Positions 104 through 15,338 of a stretch of DNA of 23,946 bases are shown in pieces. The first letter of the stretch is position 1. Each line of letters starts with the position of its first letter. Origin of the DNA: Oscillatoria sp. HE19RPO (lineage in GTDB: Bacteria > Cyanobacteriota > Cyanobacteriia > Cyanobacteriales > Laspinemataceae); NCBI RefSeq assembly GCF_024220515.1, contig NZ_JAMXOT010000326.1:1-23946 (forward strand), read 5' to 3'. A program made the translations under genes and the position numbers. A model generated the notes under the pieces. That model had not been told where the DNA came from and made no database searches. It was given only the letters and a program-made list of their open reading frames with translations.

Positions 104-975
104 TTATAAATCGGGCCTGTTTCGCTCTCTTCCCTCTTTCTGCTGACGTGGATTTCTTATTTTCCTCTGCCTAGAGTGACAGAAGAGGGATAGAGCAATA
201 CCGTTTAGCCAATCCGAAAGATAAACGAGGACGTCGAACCACATTAACTCTTGAAGAACAAGTCTTAGTAGCATTAGAATATTGGCGAGAATATCGAACC
301 TATTTCCATCTCGGCACAAATTGGAGAGTCTCCGAATCAACAGTGTGCCGAATTGTCACTAATATCGAATCCACTTTGATGAAAAGTGGAAAGTTGAGGA
401 TTCCTGGCAAGAAAGCCTTGCTTAAAGGTTTTGGGGATCCAGAAGTTGTCGTAATGGATGTCACAGAAACAGCAATCGAACGGCCCCAAAAAAAACAGAA
501 GAAATACTTTTCAGGAAAGAAAAAATACCACAGTCTAAAAATGCAGGTGGTCATTAATCAAAAAACTAAAGAGATTATTTGCCTACACTTTGGGCCGGGG
601 CATTGCCATGACTTCAATTTATTCAAAAACAGTCCAGTCCATTTTCATCCTGAACCCGATAGTTTACAAGATAGTGGATATCAAGGAATAAAAAAATATC
701 ATTCTAATAGCTATACTCCTAAAAAGAAACCGAAAAAGGGTAGTCTTTTCGCCTTACAAAAAGACTACCATCTGGCTTTGTCCCAAGACATAGTTGGGAT
801 TAAACATATTAATAGAAGTCTGAAAATTTTCAAGATTTTGTCAAGTCGTTATCGAAATCGTCGCCGCCGTTATGGCCTCCGGTGTAATTTGCTCGCAGCA
901 CTTTACAATTATGAGTTGGCTCTGGGGGCTAAAATTCAAAATTTGTAATTATAACATAGATTTTTTTGCAAGAGG
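104..975 (+). mobile_element. IS5-family insertion sequence carrying a Harbinger/DDE_Tnp_4-type transposase; boundaries uncertain and the element may be degenerate
   Basis: Transposase homology in frame 1 runs from about nt 175 (HTH region ...KRGRRTTLTLEEQVLVALEYWREYRTYFHLGTNWRVSESTV...) to the stop at 948. No clear terminal inverted repeats could be defined by eye. The left end may lie upstream of the window. Confidence 0.5.
343..948 (+). CDS. IS5-family DDE transposase (DDE_Tnp_4 / Harbinger-like)
   Basis: The motif GKKKYHSLKMQVVINQKTKEIICLHFGPGHCHDFNLFKNS matches the conserved G-x-KGYHS...G-x-PGS-x-HD block of DDE_Tnp_4, and DSGYQG matches the third catalytic region. In-frame homology extends upstream to about nt 175 with no ATG, GTG or TTG before the GTG at 343. 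An in-frame TAG lies at 172-174. This is probably a pseudogene or a non-canonical start. Confidence 0.7.
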   Translation: MCRIVTNIESTLMKSGKLRIPGKKALLKGFGDPEVVVMDVTETAIERPQKKQKKYFSGKKKYHSLKMQVVINQKTKEIICLHFGPGHCHDFNLFKNSPVHFHPEPDSLQDSGYQGIKKYHSNSYTPKKKPKKGSLFALQKDYHLALSQDIVGIKHINRSLKIFKILSSRYRNRRRRYGLRCNLLAALYNYELALGAKIQNL

Positions 976-979
976 TCTA

Positions 980-1300
980 ATGATCAAGAAAAATAGTAGA
1001 GTCAGGAGTTGGCAAATCGTGATGAATTGGGGTCATTATTATCTATCTATTTTCATTGTTGTGAGTGCTTTGCTGTTTCTGGAGGGAAGTCTAAGGCAGA
1101 ACTCTCTTCAAGCGCAAGTCATCCCGGATAATACGCTACCGAATCCTACCGGGGTGCAAATCAATGGCAATACTTTCACCATTGAGGGGGGAACTGCTGC
1201 CGGGAGTAATTTGTTTCATAGTTTCCAGGAATTTTCCATCCCGATGGGAACTGCTGCACTTTTTAACAATTCCCCGGCGATCGCTAATATTATTACTTGA
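980..1300 (+). CDS. TpsA-like exoprotein, N-terminal fragment (signal peptide plus start of TPS domain) ending at a premature TGA
   Basis: Same frame as the 872..1300 ORF; 980 is the first ATG that yields a hydrophobic signal-like segment. The start could alternatively be at 872. Confidence 0.5.
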   Translation: MIKKNSRVRSWQIVMNWGHYYLSIFIVVSALLFLEGSLRQNSLQAQVIPDNTLPNPTGVQINGNTFTIEGGTAAGSNLFHSFQEFSIPMGTAALFNNSPAIANIIT

Positions 1301-1315
1301 ATTACTGGCGGCAAA

Positions 1316-2383
1316 TTGTCCCAAATTGATGGGGCGATCGCCGCCAATGGCAGCGCCAATTTATTTTTAATTAATCCCAGTGGCATTGCCTTCGGACCGA
1401 ATGCGACCCTAAATCTAGGGGGTTCCTTTGTCGGGAGTACCGCCAACAGGGTGTTATTTCCTGGCGATCGCGCCTTTAGTGCCACGGACCCTGATTCATC
1501 GCCAATTTTGAGCGTAAATGTCCCCATCGGGTTGCAATACGGACCGAATCCCGAGAGCATTGTTGTGCGGGATGCGGTCTTAACTGTGCTGCCAAATCAA
1601 TCTTTAACCTGGGTTGGGGGTGAGATTACCCTGGAGGGGGGACAATTATTGGCCCCCGGTGGGACGGTGAGTTTGGGGGGGATATCCGAGGCGGGAGTGG
1701 TGGAATTACCCGGAGGAAATGCCCTCAAACTGCGGGACACCATCGGGCGATCGCCACTCACTCTCACCAATGGGGCGCGAGTGGATGTGGCAGGGTCAGG
1801 GGGTGGAAGTATCTCGATTCAGGTGGATAATCTGCTGATTTCTGGTCAGTCTGAGATTCGCGGGGGGATTGCCGAAGGGTTAGGAGAACCGGGTGCACAA
1901 GCAGGAGATATCGACATTGATACCCGGGGAAATATTGTGCTAACGGGAGAGAGTGCGATCGCCAATGAAGTCCAACCCACGGGAATGGGAGATGGGGGAA
2001 ATATCACTTTAAATACCAACAGCTTTTCCGCAACCCGTTCAATGATTTCTACTAGCACATCGGGAGAAGGGAATGGGGGAAAACTGCAAATTACCGCCCG
2101 AGACTCGGTGGTATTTGATGGACAAGGCACAGAGGATTTCATCACCATCGCCTCGGCAGATGTAGCACCCGGAGGGGTCGGAAATGCAGGAGGCATCGAG
2201 ATTCAGGCGCGTTCTGTGTTGGTCAAAGATGGCGCGGGCATGAGCACGGGAACCCGGGGTCGGGGGAATGGTGCACCCCTAGTCATTCGCGCCGTAGAGT
2301 CGGTGGTTTTTGATGGAGTGAATTCCAGTAACGATGTGCTAAGGGTGTTCCAACAAATAAATCATCCAAATCCCGATGGTTAA
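1316..2383 (+). CDS. TpsA-like exoprotein, middle fragment (rest of TPS domain plus Gly-rich beta-helix repeats)
   Basis: [25 protein letters not shown] and repeated GNGG/GxGG hemagglutinin-type repeats. Ends with a stop codon supplied by the inserted element (…[12 protein letters not shown]). Confidence 0.6.
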   Translation: [355 protein letters not shown]

Positions 2384-2479
2384 GCATCTAACTATATTAG
2401 CCCGCGCAGGCGGGCTTTGTCCGTGTAGCCCCACCCTTAAGGGTGCGGGTTTTTTGGGGATTTTATTTTTTGGAGTTCC
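2343..2479 (+). mobile_element. MITE-like ~137 bp element (copy A) inserted into the TpsA-like gene
   Basis: Shares TTCCAACAAATAAATCATCC, TATATTAGCCCGCGCAGGC, CCCCACCCTTAAGGGTGCGGGTTTTTTGG and ATTTTATTTTTTGGAGTTCCC with a second copy at 13575..13720. The termini are imperfect inverted repeats: left GGGTGTTCCAACAAATAAA, right reverse-complement GGAACTCCAAAAAATAAAA. It has an internal hairpin (CACCC TTAA GGGTG) followed by a T-run. There is a possible 4-bp target duplication CTAA (2339-2342 and 2480-2483). Confidence 0.55.
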
Positions 2480-2482
2480 CTA

Positions 2483-3793
2483 ATGCCGACGGGGGCGGAA
2501 AGTACCGTAGACCCCGAGGCAATGGGAAAGGCGGGAAGTTTAGAGCTTGAGACGGCAGCATTACGGATTCTAAATGGGGCGAATGTGGGCAGTATGACCT
2601 TTGAGGCGGGGAATGGAGGTCCTGTGAGATTACAGGCAACGGAGGTGATGGAATTTGGAGGAGTCGATCGCCTGGGCAATCCGGTGATTGTGTTTAGTGA
2701 TACGTTGGGAGAGGGGAATGGGGATAATTTACGGATTGAAACCCCGAGGTTGATTTTGCGCGATGGTGCCCAGATTAGTGTGGGTACATTTGGCGCGGGG
2801 GATGGGGGAAATTTGGAGATTCTGGCAACGGAGGCGATTGTGTTATCTGGTTCAGTTCCGGCAACGGAGGGCGGATTTTTCTTCACCGATGAGTCTGGAA
2901 TGGTTTTCCCTACAGGCATTTTTGCTGCTTCTACACAGACGGGGAATGCGGGGACAATGCAGTTAGAGACGGGAGAGTTAATGTTAGGCGATCGCGCGAT
3001 TATTTCCGCCAGTGGTGAGAGTACGGGGGTTGCTGGGAATATGGAAATCGTGGCGCGACAGATTCTGGTTAATAATGCGGCGATCGCCGCTGAAACGGTG
3101 CAGGGGGACCAGGCGAATATTTTCATTGAATCGCGGGATATCCGGTTGCGGAATCAAGGGGGAATTACCACCAATGCCAGTGGGAGTGGGACGGGAGGGA
3201 ATATTGCGATCGCCACGGATACGTTAGTTGCCGTAGAAAATAGCGATATTACGGCCAATTCCAGCGCTAGTTTTGGGGGTCGCGTGGCGATCGCTGCCCA
3301 AGGCATCTTGGGGACTGATTTTCGCACAGAAATCACCCCTCAAAGTGATATTACTGCCACCTCCGAACTTGGGGCGGAGTTTAGCGGCAGTGTCACCATT
3401 AATACCCCCGATGTCAATCCCTCTACTGGATTGGTGCAATTACCCGAAATGCTGGTGCAAGCGAGGGATAATTACTTTGTCGGTTGTGCCTTATCCGATG
3501 AGAATTCTTTTACTATTTCTGGACGAGGAGGATTGCCCACCGATCCGACTCAACCCCTCCAAACCCAACCGATTTGGCATGATTTACGCAACTTTTTCCA
3601 AGAGTTAGAGGAGGAACCCGTTACCCTTGCCCCCCCTGGTACCCCTTCCTCTGAAAATTCATCTCCCCGACTCAAGGAAGCGACAGGTTGGCGACAAAAT
3701 TCTCAAGGAACCATTGAATTAATTACGGCAATACCCGAGGGAAGTATTTCTTTTTCCGGGTTGCGATCGCCGGACTGTCAACCCATTGAATAA
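2483..3793 (+). CDS. TpsA-like exoprotein, C-terminal fragment
   Basis: Same frame as the upstream fragments. Continues the GNGG repeat architecture. No signal peptide of its own. Ends with the GRGGLPTDPT region. Confidence 0.6.
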   Translation: MPTGAESTVDPEAMGKAGSLELETAALRILNGANVGSMTFEAGNGGPVRLQATEVMEFGGVDRLGNPVIVFSDTLGEGNGDNLRIETPRLILRDGAQISVGTFGAGDGGNLEILATEAIVLSGSVPATEGGFFFTDESGMVFPTGIFAASTQTGNAGTMQLETGELMLGDRAIISASGESTGVAGNMEIVARQILVNNAAIAAETVQGDQANIFIESRDIRLRNQGGITTNASGSGTGGNIAIATDTLVAVENSDITANSSASFGGRVAIAAQGILGTDFRTEITPQSDITATSELGAEFSGSVTINTPDVNPSTGLVQLPEMLVQARDNYFVGCALSDENSFTISGRGGLPTDPTQPLQTQPIWHDLRNFFQELEEEPVTLAPPGTPSSENSSPRLKEATGWRQNSQGTIELITAIPEGSISFSGLRSPDCQPIE

Positions 3794-3948
3794 TAGCGGT
3801 TGTTAATATCTGTGAATCAGTCTTGCGAGTCAGACCCTTTCTGGATATGATAGGAACGAGAGAAAATGGCGGTTTTTGTTCCCTAAGCGGATGAGGATAC
3901 GCTCTTCCAATTTTTTAACAACTCGTCCATTTCTCCGGACCCATCAGA

Positions 3949-5739
3949 TTGGATTGCTTTATGTCTAAAACTCCTGACTTGACCGATCGCCTCATTCGCC
4001 AAAAATCCGCCCCTGAATTGTTTAGCAAAGGCCAGTCTGATTATGAAGCGGGCAATGTCACCGCAGTAACTCTGCGGGGCAACTTAATCAATGCCGAAGT
4101 CATCGGCAACGCAGTCCAACCCTATCGGGTTCAAGTTGGATTTGACCAGGGCAGTTTGACCTCGGCGACCTGTTCTTGTGCTTATGATGCTGAATGGTGT
4201 GAACATATTGTTGCCACCCTATTTGTGGTGATGCGACAACCGGAAATCATTCAAGAACGTCCGACTTTGGAGCAATTAATCGGTCAGCTAAACCTGTTAG
4301 AACTCCAAGAATTAGTGCAAAATTTGGTCAATCAAAATCCAGGACTTCTGGATGAAATTGACTGCTATATTACGTTAAATCCTGAACTAAAAATTTCAAA
4401 TCAACCGGCAAAAAATCACCGTTCTTCCCCCATTAATTCTGTTCCATTTCGTCAACAGGCCCGGGACATTTTATATGAGGGAATGCGATATTTTGAAAAT
4501 TTAGACGGGGAAGAGGACCCGGTAACCGAGGAGTTATTAGATTTAATTGATAATGTTCAAGGGTTAATAGAAATTGGGGAGACTTATAATGCTTTAATCG
4601 TCTTAGAAGCCATTGCCTCAGCTTGTGCAGCCGATTGGGACCGGGTGGAACAGTATGGGATTGATTCGGATGAAATTGTCATCGCCCTGGATGAGGCGAT
4701 CGCCGAAGCAATTCTCAGCGACTCCCTGAGTTCCAGTGAAGTGGAACAGTGGCGATCGCGATTAGAAATCCTCCAAGAGGAGTGGAGTACCGAATTTCCC
4801 CTCAGCTTAGAATCCCTAACTCAAGGATGGGATGATCCGGATCTGGTAGCAGCCCTCAACGGAACTATAACCGAACCTGAAATTAAAGAAGAGTCGCTTA
4901 CCAATTATTCCCCAGATTTGGGATTAATTCGTTTAAGAATTCTGGATCTGCAAGAGCGATATCAGGAGTATTTGAACCTGGCCAAAGCGAAAGGTAAAAT
5001 GAAACAATATCTGACCATGTTGGGCAGTTTAGGACGAACTGCCGAAGCAATGGAAGCCGCCGAAAATCAGATGAAAACTATGGAGGAAGCATTATCCCTG
5101 GGTCAAACTTTACACAGCAATGGAGAAGTCAGAAAAGCCTTGGAAGTCGGGCGAATGGGGTTAAAATTATTGGGAAATTGCCAATATGAACTCGCCAGTT
5201 GGACCGCTGATTTAGCCCAAGAATTGGGGAATGCCGAGGTAGAAATGGAGGCGAGACAACTAGCCTTTTGCTATAACCCCACTTCGGCGGATTATTTCAG
5301 ACTCAAAGAATTAAACGGAGAAAATTGGTCTAACATTCAGCCAGATTTATTAAAATCTCTCAGGCAGCATACGAGTTGGGGGACAACTGAGGTTAAGGCG
5401 GATATTTTTCTAAGTGAAGGCTTAATTGATGAGGCGATCGCCTCCGTAAAAGGCTTGGGTTCCTATCATATAGATTTAGTGCATCGAGTCATGGATGCCG
5501 CGATTCCTGAACGTCCAGATTGGGTGATTGAAACGGCGCGACCCTTTGCCGAAGCGATTCTGGATCGCAAAAAATCTGAATCCTATAATCAGGCGATCGC
5601 CTGGTTGAAAAAAGTCCGGGCCGCCTACATTCAAAAAGACCAGTGGGACCGCTGGAAAACCTATCGACAAGAATTGCTACAAACCCACGCCCGCAAACAC
5701 AAATTCCGGGGGATGCTGGAAGATAGGCGCTTGGATTAA
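3949..5739 (+). CDS. SWIM zinc-finger domain protein (conserved hypothetical)
   Basis: CxC...CxH SWIM signature SATCSCAYDAEWCEHIVATLF near the N-terminus. The remainder is a helical, TPR-like region. An alternative start is the ATG at 3961 (MSKTPDL). Confidence 0.75.
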   Translation: MDCFMSKTPDLTDRLIRQKSAPELFSKGQSDYEAGNVTAVTLRGNLINAEVIGNAVQPYRVQVGFDQGSLTSATCSCAYDAEWCEHIVATLFVVMRQPEIIQERPTLEQLIGQLNLLELQELVQNLVNQNPGLLDEIDCYITLNPELKISNQPAKNHRSSPINSVPFRQQARDILYEGMRYFENLDGEEDPVTEELLDLIDNVQGLIEIGETYNALIVLEAIASACAADWDRVEQYGIDSDEIVIALDEAIAEAILSDSLSSSEVEQWRSRLEILQEEWSTEFPLSLESLTQGWDDPDLVAALNGTITEPEIKEESLTNYSPDLGLIRLRILDLQERYQEYLNLAKAKGKMKQYLTMLGSLGRTAEAMEAAENQMKTMEEALSLGQTLHSNGEVRKALEVGRMGLKLLGNCQYELASWTADLAQELGNAEVEMEARQLAFCYNPTSADYFRLKELNGENWSNIQPDLLKSLRQHTSWGTTEVKADIFLSEGLIDEAIASVKGLGSYHIDLVHRVMDAAIPERPDWVIETARPFAEAILDRKKSESYNQAIAWLKKVRAAYIQKDQWDRWKTYRQELLQTHARKHKFRGMLEDRRLD

Positions 5740-8039: not shown

Positions 8040-8300
8040 CCCCCCAGCCCCCTTCCCTAAGCTAATCTTGTAGGGGTTTTGTAGGGGCGCAATGCTTGCG
8101 CCCCCTAGTTTTGGAAAACAGACCCTAGTTTTGGAAAACAGACCCTAGCTGTGAAAACAGACCCTCGCTGTGAAAACAGACCCTCGCTTTGGGCGCAAGC
8201 ATTGCGCCCCTACATAAAATAACGATTTTTATAAAATAACGATTTTTCGTAGGCGGCTTCAAAACCCCTACAAGATTAGAGGAAGAGGAAAGGGGGAGAA
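8040..8300. repeat. Complex intergenic repeat: nested inverted repeats enclosing four 20-bp tandem units and a doubled AAATAACGATTTTT motif
   Basis: CTTGTAGGGGTTTTG (8067-8081) pairs with CAAAACCCCTACAAG (8259-8273). GTAGGGGCGCAATGCTTGCGCCCC pairs with GGGGCGCAAGCATTGCGCCCCTAC. Between them are CCTAGTTTTGGAAAACAGAC x2 and CCT(A/C)GCTGTGAAAACAGAC x2. The GTAGGGGCGC and AAATAACGATTTTTCGT modules are shared with the repeats at 11.8 kb and 23.6 kb. Confidence 0.7.
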
Positions 8301-11642: not shown

Positions 11643-12069
11643 CAACACCCGGCGGGGGTTCTCTCCGGTCCCCTCCCCTTGGCAAGGGGAGGGTTAGGGT
11701 GGGGTTCTTTTTGTGCGATTCCCTACGGGATAGCTCCGCTTACCGCACATCACGAAGAAAGAGGTTGGACCAGTCTCCATACAGGCGCGATCGCCCTAGC
11801 CCTGTCAAGGTGATAAATTTAATGACGAAAAATCAGGGTTTCTTGGACAGGCGATCACTCTCGCGCCCCTACAATCTACACACCTTGACAGGGCTAGTGC
11901 GATCGCCCCCAAGAGTGCGTGACGTGGCGGTAAGCGGAGCTATCCCGTAGGGAATCGGCAAAGAGGGACCCCACCCTAACCCTCCCCTTGCCAAGGGGAG
12001 GGAACCGGAGGTGCAGTTAAGCGTAAAAAACCTACTCTTGTATAAAGGATTAATCCCCCGCCGGTTGTT
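11643..12069. repeat. ~430 bp nested imperfect palindrome (four concentric inverted-repeat layers) around one copy of the 65-bp GTAGGGGCGC repeat unit
   Basis: Four layers, each pairing with its reverse complement: CAACACCCGGCGGGGG (11643) with CCCCCGCCGGTTGTT (12055); CCCTCCCCTTGGCAAGGGGAGGG(TTAGGGTGGGG) (11671) with (CCCCACCCTAA)CCCTCCCCTTGCCAAGGGGAGGG (11969); GATTCCCTACGGGATAGCTCCGCTTACCGC (11722) with GCGGTAAGCGGAGCTATCCCGTAGGGAATC (11925); CTAGCCCTGTCAAGGTG (11794) with CACCTTGACAGGGCTAG (11881). The core at 11813-11880 is the reverse complement of the 65-mer unit seen at 23.6 kb. Confidence 0.7.
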
Positions 12070-12151: not shown

Positions 12152-13030
12152 TTAACCCTCCGAATCCGTTGCTGGAGACTCCACTGGCGCGACTGGACTC
12201 CAAGCACTTTTCTGCTGACTATTGCGGTGCATCAGCGCCAAAGTCAATTGTTTAAATAACCAGTATAAAACCGTAATCACCACAAACGTGACAATCATCA
12301 CCAAAACCGGACGACGACCAATCAAATCATTCATCACACTGCGGACTAAAATATCTGGGTCCGTCACAATATCCCAAGTATTAAACCGTTGAAAGCGACC
12401 CAGATAAATCCCAATTGCCGTCAACCCATGTATCACCAATTCCGCCAACCCAGTCCAGCGACGTAACCCAGACCGTTCCATATACCAAGTTAAATAAATC
12501 AGGGACAGAACATAAGATTGAAACCCCACAATCATAAAGATTAGATACTGGGGAATCAAAGCTAACGTAATAATCCAGACCGAGTATCCGGCGCGAATAT
12601 CAGTGATTAAATGAATCACATCGGTTAACACATAAGGCGCATTCGGTAAAAAGGTGATAAACGCCACAAATCCCACCCACCATAAGAGAGAACGCGAAAC
12701 CGTCGAGCTATTTTGACTGCGCCGCAACTGCCAAATTTCCGACGACATCAAAATCAGAGTCAGGATGAGAATCCAGATTAAGTAATCAGCACTGATTCGT
12801 TGCAGCAGGAAAATTCCCGTCCGGAAAACCCGGTGAGCAGACGGCAGAAAAGTGGCCCCTAAAATGAGAAACACTCCCCATCGTAACCATTGCGATCGGG
12901 GTTTGTGAAACAACCAAAAACTCAACGCTAAGGGAACCACCGCTAAAAACGTATTCCAAGCCATAAAGCGATGATTGCCTTCCAGGGCCCCCCATGCAAC
13001 AGTCATCCAGTCCATCAATTGAGCAGTCAT
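12152..13030 (-). CDS. Polytopic integral membrane protein, DUF1361-like
   Basis: About 8 hydrophobic segments. LPNAPYVLTDVIHL and RFQRFNTWD resemble DUF1361 hallmark motifs (recalled from memory, not searched). Confidence 0.55.
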   Translation of the reverse strand: MTAQLMDWMTVAWGALEGNHRFMAWNTFLAVVPLALSFWLFHKPRSQWLRWGVFLILGATFLPSAHRVFRTGIFLLQRISADYLIWILILTLILMSSEIWQLRRSQNSSTVSRSLLWWVGFVAFITFLPNAPYVLTDVIHLITDIRAGYSVWIITLALIPQYLIFMIVGFQSYVLSLIYLTWYMERSGLRRWTGLAELVIHGLTAIGIYLGRFQRFNTWDIVTDPDILVRSVMNDLIGRRPVLVMIVTFVVITVLYWLFKQLTLALMHRNSQQKSAWSPVAPVESPATDSEG

Positions 13031-13254
13031 AGGCTTTTTCTTTCAGGGATTCTTTCAACAGAGCTTGTTTATTCCCTTACTATGATATTCACTTGATTCT
13101 GGGAGTTGCCAAATTGCTGAAACTCTTGACAATTTAGAGATATTGTGGTATGTAAAAAGACTAACTGGTATAGTAAATCATTGTTGTATATAGATAACGA
13201 GCAAGATGCTCGCACTCCTTAACTCACTCACGTCTCACTAATGTCCTCTATTTC

Positions 13255-13350
13255 TCGTGACTTGGCTCCGCAGAGTCACGTCCTATTGGAGGCTCTGCCT
13301 CCTGCTACTGTATCAGGCGGCAGAGCCGCTGATTGCCCGTGACATGGCTC
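13255..13350. repeat. Hairpin-rich dispersed repeat (CGTGACNTGGCT...GTCACG modules), copy 1
   Basis: CGTGACTTGGCTCCGCAGAGTCACG and CGTGACATGGCTCTGCCGTGTCACGAG hairpins with a shared TTGGAGGCTC(T/C)GCCT...GCTGATT core. A related copy lies at 14222..14390. Confidence 0.45.
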
Positions 13351-13357
13351 TGCCGTG

Positions 13358-13618
13358 TCACGAGAAAATCCTTTGCGATTGGGGCGGAAATACATCAGCC
13401 AGAGGTGAGATTTCACCAGCAGCAATTTCCTGTCGGACCATTTGGGCCATCTTATCCCACTGAGCATCAGTCGTCGATGCGAACTGGTCTTGCCATTTCT
13501 GGTCATCCTCCATTTCTGCAAGCAGACGAGAGGCGATCGCATCCTGCTGTTCATCCGGTAAAGTTTTCAGTTGGGGTATTCCAACAAATAAATCATCCTT
13601 GCTTTGATGCGATCGCAC
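13358..13618 (-). CDS. Small hypothetical protein, antitoxin-like (resembles the putative addiction-module-component family); N-terminus supplied by the MITE-like element
   Basis: LKTLPDEQQDAIASRLLAEMEDDQKWQ resembles the LP..ER..LA..LL.SL signature of small antitoxin-like proteins (TIGR02574-type, from memory). The first ~15 codons (MRSHQSKDDLFVGIP) lie inside the MITE copy at 13575..13720. Confidence 0.4.
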   Translation of the reverse strand: MRSHQSKDDLFVGIPQLKTLPDEQQDAIASRLLAEMEDDQKWQDQFASTTDAQWDKMAQMVRQEIAAGEISPLADVFPPQSQRIFS

Positions 13619-13720
13619 CTAACAAGACTCTATATTAGCCCGCGCAGGCACCGCTTCGTTCGCAAGTGCCCCACCCTTTAGGGTGCGGGTTTTTTGGATA
13701 TTTTATTTTTTGGACTTCCC
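13575..13720 (+). mobile_element. MITE-like ~146 bp element (copy B)
   Basis: Same conserved blocks and terminal inverted repeats as copy A at 2343..2479 (left GGTATTCCAACAAATAAA, right reverse-complement GGGAAGTCCAAAAAATAAAA). Possible 4-bp target duplication TTGG. Carries a terminator-like hairpin plus T-run. Confidence 0.55.
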
Positions 13721-13826
13721 TTGGGCAATCACTCGTTTAAGTAATTCAGTCATTGTTTTGATTGTAGGAGGTAGTGGGTGGAGTTGGGTGGTATTGTGAC
13801 AAGAAACCAGAGACTCAACAGTATTT

Positions 13827-14051
13827 TTAAACGAGGTAGTTGTTGTAGTTTGGCGGTTCGGTTTCTACGTTAGGGGGTTGGGGATTGAGGGGGAGTGCAT
13901 CCACTTCAGCAAACCAGTTTTCCCAAAGGGTAGTGTAATCGGTTTGGGGTTGAAGGGAGCGGGTAAAGGCGAGAACTTGGGTTAAGGATTCCGGGGGAAG
14001 GCGATCGAGTTCGCGATCGATTTGTTGTCGGATTAGGGGAGGGTTTTGCAT
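13827..14051 (-). CDS. Small hypothetical protein, DUF2281-like (putative antitoxin-like), orphan
   Basis: MQNPPLIRQQIDRELDRLPPESLTQVLAFTRSL resembles the DUF2281 N-terminal pattern common in cyanobacterial toxin-antitoxin-like pairs. No partner ORF is adjacent. Confidence 0.4.
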   Translation of the reverse strand: MQNPPLIRQQIDRELDRLPPESLTQVLAFTRSLQPQTDYTTLWENWFAEVDALPLNPQPPNVETEPPNYNNYLV

Positions 14052-14221
14052 GAGCGGGGTTGATGGGGTAGTGGGTTACTTGGGCGGTTGAGAAACCGGG
14101 GTTCTTAGGAAACATTATGCCTTACAATTAAAGTTATCGCAGAAACCCGGTTTCTGGGCTTTCTGGGACTAGAGGCGTGAGCGAATTTGGTCGCTGAAAG
14201 GGAGTTGACGGAGGCGGCTGT

Positions 14222-15291: not shown

Positions 15292-15338
15292 CTCTTGCTC
15301 CCCCTTCCCTCCCAGGGAAGGGGGCTGGGGGGTTAGGT
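15292..15338. repeat. Dispersed hairpin repeat CTCTTGCTCCCCCTTCCCTCCCAGGGAAGGGGGCTGGGGGGTTAGGTC (copy 2)
   Basis: Copy of 12074..12121. Lies between the convergent 3' ends of xisI and the MVP gene and overlaps the MVP stop codon, so it may act as a bidirectional terminator. Confidence 0.5.

Follow-up and report, generated by a model that had tools for sequence, protein, structure and literature searches.

The stretch of DNA analysed here, which we refer to as the window, comprises 23,946 nucleotides of the cyanobacterium Oscillatoria sp. HE19RPO. It contains a small minus-strand open reading frame (ORF) that starts inside one of two copies of a MITE and continues into the remainder of a small antitoxin gene, next to the relics of further toxin-antitoxin (TA) genes. 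The features on which the analysis turns are given below by position and strand, where L001 and L002 denote the metagenome contigs (SRR24908176 and ERR14790952, respectively) that carry the two closest homologues of the antitoxin gene.

2343–2480, plus strand: MITE copy A, 138 bp, with the target-site duplication (TSD) TAA at 2340–2342 and 2481–2483
13165–13374: toxin-deletion scar, a 210-bp segment found by blastn in place of 463 bp of L001
13251–13367: 117-bp imperfect palindrome with CTCGTGAC...GTCACGAG stems and three GGCAGAGCC units, at the toxin-loss junction
13358–13618, minus strand: chimeric 86-codon ORF made up of a GTG and 15 MITE codons, a native part and a C-terminal RIFS followed by the stop
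13571–13573: left TSD, TTG (CAA, Gln codon 11/12, on the minus strand), present as a single CAA in L001 and L002
13574–13720, plus strand: MITE copy B, 147 bp, which aligns with copy A, is absent exactly from L001 and L002, and is a member of the MITE family
13668–13695, plus strand: terminator-like hairpin (CCCCACCC/GGGTGCGGG) and T-run in copy B, antisense to the antitoxin gene
13721–13723: right TSD, TTG, from the TSD reconstruction and the empty-site alignment
13721–13753, minus strand: displaced native 5' end of the antitoxin gene, MTELLKRVIAQ (ATG and 10 codons), from translation, reconstruction and the family consensus
13827–14051, minus strand: DUF2281-like antitoxin relic of 74 aa, with a stop at codon 75 and its PIN-like partner deleted

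The TA relics adjoin an overlapping XisH/XisI pair (PF08814, PF08869; 14470–15215, plus strand). Further along, an 881-aa ORF (15333–17978, minus strand) matches the full Major Vault Protein domain set (Vault repeats, Vault_2/3/4 and MVP shoulder; E down to 2e-67) and is, by this domain content, a predicted vault-protein homologue in cyanobacterial DNA. Dense non-coding repeats occupy 8094–8250, with 19–20-nt tandem units at 8094–8195, and 23599–23946, where three 65-nt tandem units and at least five 26-nt units (GGTTTTAAGTTGCAACAACCGGCGGG) run off the end of the window. There is also a pair of 84-nt inverted arms at 11663–12010, with related pieces elsewhere in the window, and within ORF 19536–21494 a 12-nt repeat of about 14 or more units (ACTCCCACAGAY; 19662–19888, plus strand) encodes a Thr-Pro-Thr-Asp linker.

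The ORF begins inside MITE copy B

The original prediction placed the start and the first ~15 codons of the minus-strand ORF inside copy B, and our analysis agrees with this. Codons 1–15 (MRSHQSKDDLFVGIP) lie at 13618–13574 within the element, and the peptide KDDLFVGIP is indeed the left terminal inverted repeat (TIR; 13574–13600) read in reverse. The duplicated target provides codon 16 (CAA), 13573–13370 holds native codons 11/12 to about 76, and the last codons and the stop (RIFS, stop) are supplied by the palindromic element at the toxin-deletion junction. The frame downstream of the MITE stays open for about 70 codons. The start codon had been given as an ATG at 13618–13616; however, the plus strand reads CAC there and the codon is GTG. 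An in-frame TAG (13621–13619) stands directly before it, and the ORF exists only because this GTG is the first start-capable codon after the last in-frame stop of the element. As predicted, on the minus strand the ORF is preceded by the hairpin and T-run (13668–13695 of the plus strand).

No recognisable Shine-Dalgarno sequence precedes the GTG, which falls within the GUGCGAUCGCAU hairpin of the predicted minus-strand RNA (fold of the MITE, -58.2 kcal/mol, z = -3.4). A promoter scan stayed at chance level, with two matches against 1.4 expected from shuffles, and the sole promoter-like match is a 9/12 sigma-70-like hybrid of flank and right TIR on the minus strand at 13728–13700 (-35 TTGCCC, -10 TAAAAT). 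From these features we infer that the chimeric ORF would not be functionally expressed; low-level translation from the GTG, or from an internal ATG at native codon 31, could conceivably occur. Looked up as an exact sequence, the 86-aa chimera has no entry in public assemblies. The filled-site junction GGACTTCCCTTGGGCAATCAC gave two metagenome matches, both of which proved on alignment to be unrelated and due to chance.

Both window copies of the MITE interrupt genes

Copy B has imperfect TIRs of ~25 bp, the left reading GGGTATTCCAACAAATAAATCATCC and the right end, in reverse complement, GGGAAGTCCAAAAAATAAAATATCC. Taken over both copies, the left TIR has the form GGGT(A/G)TTCCAACAAATAAATCATCC and the right, in reverse complement, GGGAA(G/C)TCCAAAAAATAAAAT. 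Copy A lies in a TpsA/filamentous-haemagglutinin-like gene (343–5739, plus strand) that is present as a string of ORFs (343–948, 872–1300, 1316–2383, 2483–3793 and 3949–5739). The break between 2383 and 2483 is caused by copy A, which splits the gene into ORFs 1316–2383 and 2483–3793 and, on the plus strand, ends the first of these as ...LRVFQQINHPNPDG and a stop; once copy A is taken out, one continuous TpsA-like frame runs from 1316 to 3793. The prediction that the element is read as peptide in a second host holds as well, as the TPS-domain ORF 1316–2383 closes in ...RVFQQINHPNPDG followed by the stop of the element. Including the duplication, copy B adds 150 bp and copy A 141 bp, both multiples of 3, and in-frame stops within both copies lead to host proteins that are truncated, not extended.

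The native N-terminus is displaced and related loci carry the empty site

It had been proposed that the native N-terminus and promoter of the small protein were replaced by MITE sequence. This part of the prediction did not hold: the element is inserted between codons 11 and 12 of the coding sequence, and the ATG, the 11 codons and everything upstream of them are kept beyond it. The native 5' end reads ATG ACT GAA TTA CTT AAA CGA GTG ATT GCC CAA on the minus strand, with the ATG at 13753–13751. The native start sits 150 bp upstream and is in frame with ORF 13358–13618, because the element and the duplication together measure 150 bp. No intact antitoxin reading frame runs from this ATG; it now enters the MITE and yields 16 codons (MTELLKRVIAQGKSKK, stop) before a TAA at 13705–13703. 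When copy B and one copy of the 3-bp target duplication (TTG) were taken out in silico (deletion of 13574–13723), an 81-aa protein was restored, MTELLKRVIAQLKTLPDEQQDAIASRLLAEMEDDQKW... (MTELLKRVIAQLKTLPDEQQ...).

Alignment of orthologues recovered the original N-terminus, as the prediction had anticipated, since all 35 aligned family members start MTELLE(R/K)xIAQLKTLP. None of the 35 begins with MRSHQSKDDLFVGIP (MRSHQSK...); a shared N-terminus of this kind would have pointed to protein-level conservation in place of an insertion. Both L001 and L002 are syntenic with the window and share its downstream neighbours, DUF1361 and a PEP-utilising enzyme. A three-way DNA alignment showed that the two loci run uninterrupted through ...GAGTGATTGCCCAACTGAAAACTTTACC... 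(...GTGATTGCCCAACTGAAAAC...) with a single CAA, and that the window has the 147-bp element and a second CAA exactly there. These exact empty sites are direct evidence for a transposition event with a 3-bp duplication. The C-terminal ~65 native residues are still an open frame, and the 8 synonymous and 6 non-synonymous codon differences from L001 in this part are too few to show relaxed selection.

The interrupted gene belongs to a family paired with ParE-like toxins

A search with the restored 81-aa protein found 808 proteins at E <=1e-3 that are 70–93% identical to it, with about 95% of the query covered. Nearly all of them are 76–78 aa long, and they come from Leptolyngbya, Nostoc, Rippkaea, Chroococcidiopsis and many metagenomes. 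The N-terminal consensus of the family, MTELLERxIAQLKTLP, matches the N-terminus that the restoration gives. Over residues 1–11 of 35 members, M1, T2, L4, E6 and I9 are invariant and E3, L5, R7, A10 and Q11 nearly so; the residues replaced by the MITE are thus among the best conserved of the family.

Homologues of the gene have an overlapping cognate partner. The 78-aa antitoxin gene lies upstream of an 89-aa PF24732 ParE_like gene (E = 2.8e-9), with a 4-nt overlap, in L001 and in two further loci, L029 (from Leptolyngbya 'hensonii') and L030, and in another, L028, the partner is of 65 aa and has no Pfam match. Because of this overlap with a PF24732 ParE_like gene, the 78-aa family behaves as the putative antitoxin of a ParE-like toxin. 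Neither Pfam, NCBIfam nor PADLOC has a model for it, and a profile search of PDB sequences and a Foldseek search with the AlphaFold model found neither a PDB relative in sequence or fold nor any known antitoxin fold. The AlphaFold model of one member (P0001, pLDDT 87.9) has helices at residues 2–13, 17–43 and 46–61, which would place the MITE insertion within helix 1. Some sources give odd automatic names, e.g. 'CarD/CdnL/TRCF family regulator', to members of this family (P0001–P0120; >800 members of 76–78 aa, paired with ParE_like toxins).

A MITE family with TNA targets in Laspinema, Oscillatoria and Phormidium

We scanned for the 20-nt left repeat, taking one genome per species, and obtained at least 25 stretches, most of them from an Oscillatoria sp. 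MAG (S11.Bin022), Laspinema olomoucense, L. palackyanum, an uncultured Laspinema and Phormidium pseudopriestleyi. In Laspinema/Oscillatoria/Phormidium we found at least 22 complete copies, each of 96–269 bp; together with the two copies in the window, this repetition is far beyond chance. The ends of the copies begin with GGG. Identical 3-bp flanks occur in 17 of the 22 complete copies and are nearly all TAA, TTA or TGA, a TNA-type duplication to which the TTG of copy B is an atypical exception. The element therefore has the properties that define a MITE: it has TIRs, a TSD with an empty site in a related genome and stops in the frames that are read, and it is small, non-coding and multi-copy. 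Most family copies are intergenic; both window copies are within genes. A preference for in-frame insertion was considered and rejected, as length plus duplication is divisible by 3 for 7 of 22 copies, the frequency expected by chance, and the in-frame lengths of both window copies are a coincidence.

Duplications of the TNA type are typical of some IS5-family groups (IS1031/ISL2-type), and, judging from this target preference, we presume an IS5-family-like enzyme to be the source of the transposase for the MITE. A full-length or autonomous IS with matching TIRs, sought as an inverted TIR pair 0.6–2 kb apart, was not found in the window and 27 loci (~200 kb). Two matches to the 20-mer in Nostoc genomes were set aside: each is a solo left TIR-like sequence, with neither a second end nor a transposase in the vicinity. 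When copy A was compared with plasmids by BLAST, the internal hairpin segment alone matched (Gloeothece and Nostoc plasmids), with no TIR match and no transposase. This internal double-hairpin segment (GCCCGCGCAGGCGGGC...CCCCACCC..GGGTGCGGG; 2396–2450 and 13634–13690 of the window) matches unannotated plasmid DNA of Gloeothece PCC 7424 and PCC 7822 at 85–91%, without the TIRs, and a small repeat with a wider distribution in cyanobacteria may be the origin of the MITE core.

The pairing of the TIRs and a GC-rich hairpin followed by a T-run are conserved across the family and visible in both the family alignment and the consensus fold. Two stem pairs, columns 102/133 and 103/132, show compensatory swaps of GC to CG, in 6 and 5 of the 16 copies respectively, which indicates that the terminator-like hairpin has been maintained. 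The copies do not share a conserved TATATT box upstream of the hairpins, and no Rfam family matched 13000–14200 with E up to 1. The hairpin of copy A is co-oriented with the interrupted TpsA-like gene. That of copy B is on the other strand from the antitoxin gene, so that transcription from the native promoter probably reads through it and the downstream frame would be present on the mRNA.

Decay of a tandem toxin-antitoxin locus

The cognate toxin gene is absent from the window locus. Searches by tblastn for a ParE-like remnant there gave no hit better than E = 0.37, with the two top scores elsewhere, and a match at 13118–13159 is at chance level (E = 7–8). The blastn segments show that 13165–13374 of the window stands in place of the parE gene and downstream spacer of L001 (1058–1520), and this replacement segment begins with the 117-bp palindrome. 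The palindrome at the junction appears to have expanded locally, because L002 carries just a 29-nt hairpin in its place. We considered it as a second dispersed MITE and have set this aside for now, as the motif is confined to this locus within the window and, among the fetched loci, to L002.

L002 and the window have in common the junction of the toxin deletion and the terminal RIFS with its stop, and L002 is free of the MITE. Codon 4 of its antitoxin gene is changed from TTA to the nonsense codon TGA. With the toxin lost in both and the MITE present in one and the nonsense codon in the other, the antitoxin has therefore been inactivated independently in two relatives. From the presence of the shared deletion without the MITE in L002, we infer that toxin loss came before the MITE insertion.

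Upstream, L002 has a second module, a DUF2281 antitoxin with a PIN-like toxin. The PIN-like gene is missing from both the window and L001; a 516-bp segment between similar short sequences has been deleted, and in the window the junction lies at about 13816. The three loci (13165–13374 of the window, 1058–1520 of L001 and 486–1001 of L002) are in three states of decay: L001 is without the PIN-like toxin, L002 is without ParE and its antitoxin gene is interrupted by a nonsense codon, and the window is without both toxins. What the window keeps of the tandem TA locus (DUF2281/PIN-like, then 78-aa antitoxin/ParE-like) is two damaged antitoxin relics. Identities among the window, L001 and L002 are mosaic, which suggests recombination.

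Discussion

The MITE insertion very probably disrupted an antitoxin that was already orphaned. We propose that copy B, a 147-bp non-autonomous TIR transposon, would have been mobilised in trans by a transposase encoded outside the window, which the TNA target preference suggests to be of an IS5-family-like type. Insertion between codons 11 and 12 of the small helical antitoxin gene duplicated 3 bp (TTG/CAA), and the resulting 150-bp in-frame insertion with its stop codons leaves the native ATG (13753) to give a 16-residue peptide and the remainder of the gene without a start of its own. The ParE-like toxin and the PIN-like toxin of the adjacent module would by then have been deleted in the lineage, making the antitoxin dispensable, so that its disruption was probably neutral and the insertion would be one step in the decay of the tandem TA locus. 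The 86-aa ORF is, in all likelihood, an ordinary MITE-disrupted orphan antitoxin pseudogene, a by-product of gene decay.

The original prediction had left open whether the insertion was an inactivation or an exaptation. Inactivation is favoured by the loss of the toxin, the nonsense codon in L002, the loss of conserved residues and the lack of a convincing promoter or ribosome-binding site before the GTG, and exaptation found no support. Were the element exapted, it would provide a new start (GTG 13618) and possibly a hybrid promoter for a hybrid antitoxin with a new 15-residue N-terminus, whose retained C-terminal part could still counteract paralogous ParE-like toxins encoded at other places in the genome. 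In favour of this are the open downstream frame of about 70 codons, the 9/12 sigma-70-like match across the flank/TIR junction (minus strand, 13728–13700), the antisense orientation of the terminator-like hairpin, which should leave minus-strand transcription unblocked, and the MITE-borne ORF fusions documented elsewhere (PMC10969869, PMC3184786). However the promoter match is no better than those in shuffles, the GTG is buried in a hairpin with nothing resembling a Shine-Dalgarno sequence ahead of it, and helix 1, the part now replaced, is the best-conserved part of the family. The cognate toxin is moreover gone, the L002 orthologue is knocked out and the chimeric protein is found in no other public assembly. 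We consider exaptation unlikely on this evidence. A more elaborate form of it seems to us very unlikely, namely that the chimeric ORF is expressed through read-through from the native promoter or from the flank/TIR promoter, and that the GTG-started hybrid, with helices 2–3 and the C-terminal tail, counteracts, as an orphan 'anti-addiction' antitoxin, the ParE-like toxins that incoming plasmids or paralogous modules encode. If this were true, the MITE would have rescued the very gene that it interrupted.

A selected regulatory role for the element, in which its terminator-like hairpin or an antisense/sRNA unit would control the antitoxin locus, draws on the conservation of the hairpin and T-run with compensatory changes across copies, and on copy A, whose hairpin is co-oriented with the TpsA gene and would be polar there. 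The terminator of copy B, in contrast, faces away from the antitoxin gene and nothing upstream on the plus strand obviously needs terminating; there is no Rfam match, the TATATT box varies among copies and the target gene was orphaned beforehand, all of which make such a role highly improbable. As for the reading that no insertion took place, with MRSHQSKDDLFVGIP a native and conserved N-terminus and the likeness to copy A coincidental or at the protein level, nothing was found in its favour. It is refuted by the family N-termini, all of which are MTELLE..., and by L001 and L002, in which the site is exactly empty and the TSD present just once, and the TIRs, the TSDs and the more than 20 copies of the element in other genomes also speak against it; we give it practically no probability.

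Disruption of the orphan antitoxin by a MITE is in keeping with what has been described in cyanobacteria, where Nezha and the MITEs of Microcystis and Anabaena have been reported with empty and filled sites, gene inactivation and MITE-host ORF fusions (PMC3184786, PMC10969869). Like Nezha of Anabaena/Nostoc (about 130–170 bp), the ORF-fusion MITEs of Anabaena PCC 7120 and the mcy-inactivating MITEs, the window element is of ~140 bp and has TIRs, short direct duplications and a stable fold; it also resembles these cyanobacterial MITEs in having empty and filled sites in related genomes, insertions within genes and an element read in host ORFs. The host clade of our family is, however, Laspinema/Oscillatoria/Phormidium, and the likeness to Nezha rests on size range and host phylum only. 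The literature that we searched has no name for a TNA-target, terminator-hairpin MITE family of Laspinema/Oscillatoria. The family would be a new one, and its effect, gene disruption and ORF fusion, is already described in cyanobacteria.

Other mobile elements and repeats share some of these properties. IS5-family groups with TNA targets (IS1031/ISL2-type) resemble the family in their TAA/TTA/TGA duplications and GGG ends, but the TTG target of copy B is atypical and the ~200 kb of fetched loci hold no transposase or full-length IS. The SPRITE-like terminator-carrying repeat is also a small repeat with a GC hairpin followed by a T-run; the window MITE, however, is unrelated to it in sequence and host, and the hairpin of copy B, a predicted terminator, faces the wrong way for the disrupted gene. 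Rickettsia palindromic elements insert in frame into genes, and the lengths of the window insertions are likewise multiples of 3 (150 and 141), whereas the window copies carry in-frame stops and truncate their host proteins, and only 7 of 22 family copies have lengths that are multiples of 3. With regard to the gene itself, type II TA systems with ParE-like toxins, such as ParDE and PaaA2-ParE2, have a small helical antitoxin upstream of the toxin gene, as do the intact relatives of the window antitoxin. In contrast to these systems, the window antitoxin is split and without its toxin, and its family has neither a model nor a fold relative.

In annotation, the 86-aa ORF is best treated as a MITE-disrupted pseudogene rather than a protein, and its MITE-derived N-terminus should be kept out of protein databases; beyond annotation, the significance of the finding is small. 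The MITE family is a possible strain marker, with copies that are able to split genes, as in the TpsA-like gene and the antitoxin gene here. The locus itself is a tidy textbook example of TA decay, in which toxin deletion, nonsense mutation and MITE insertion are combined in a different way in each of three related genomes.
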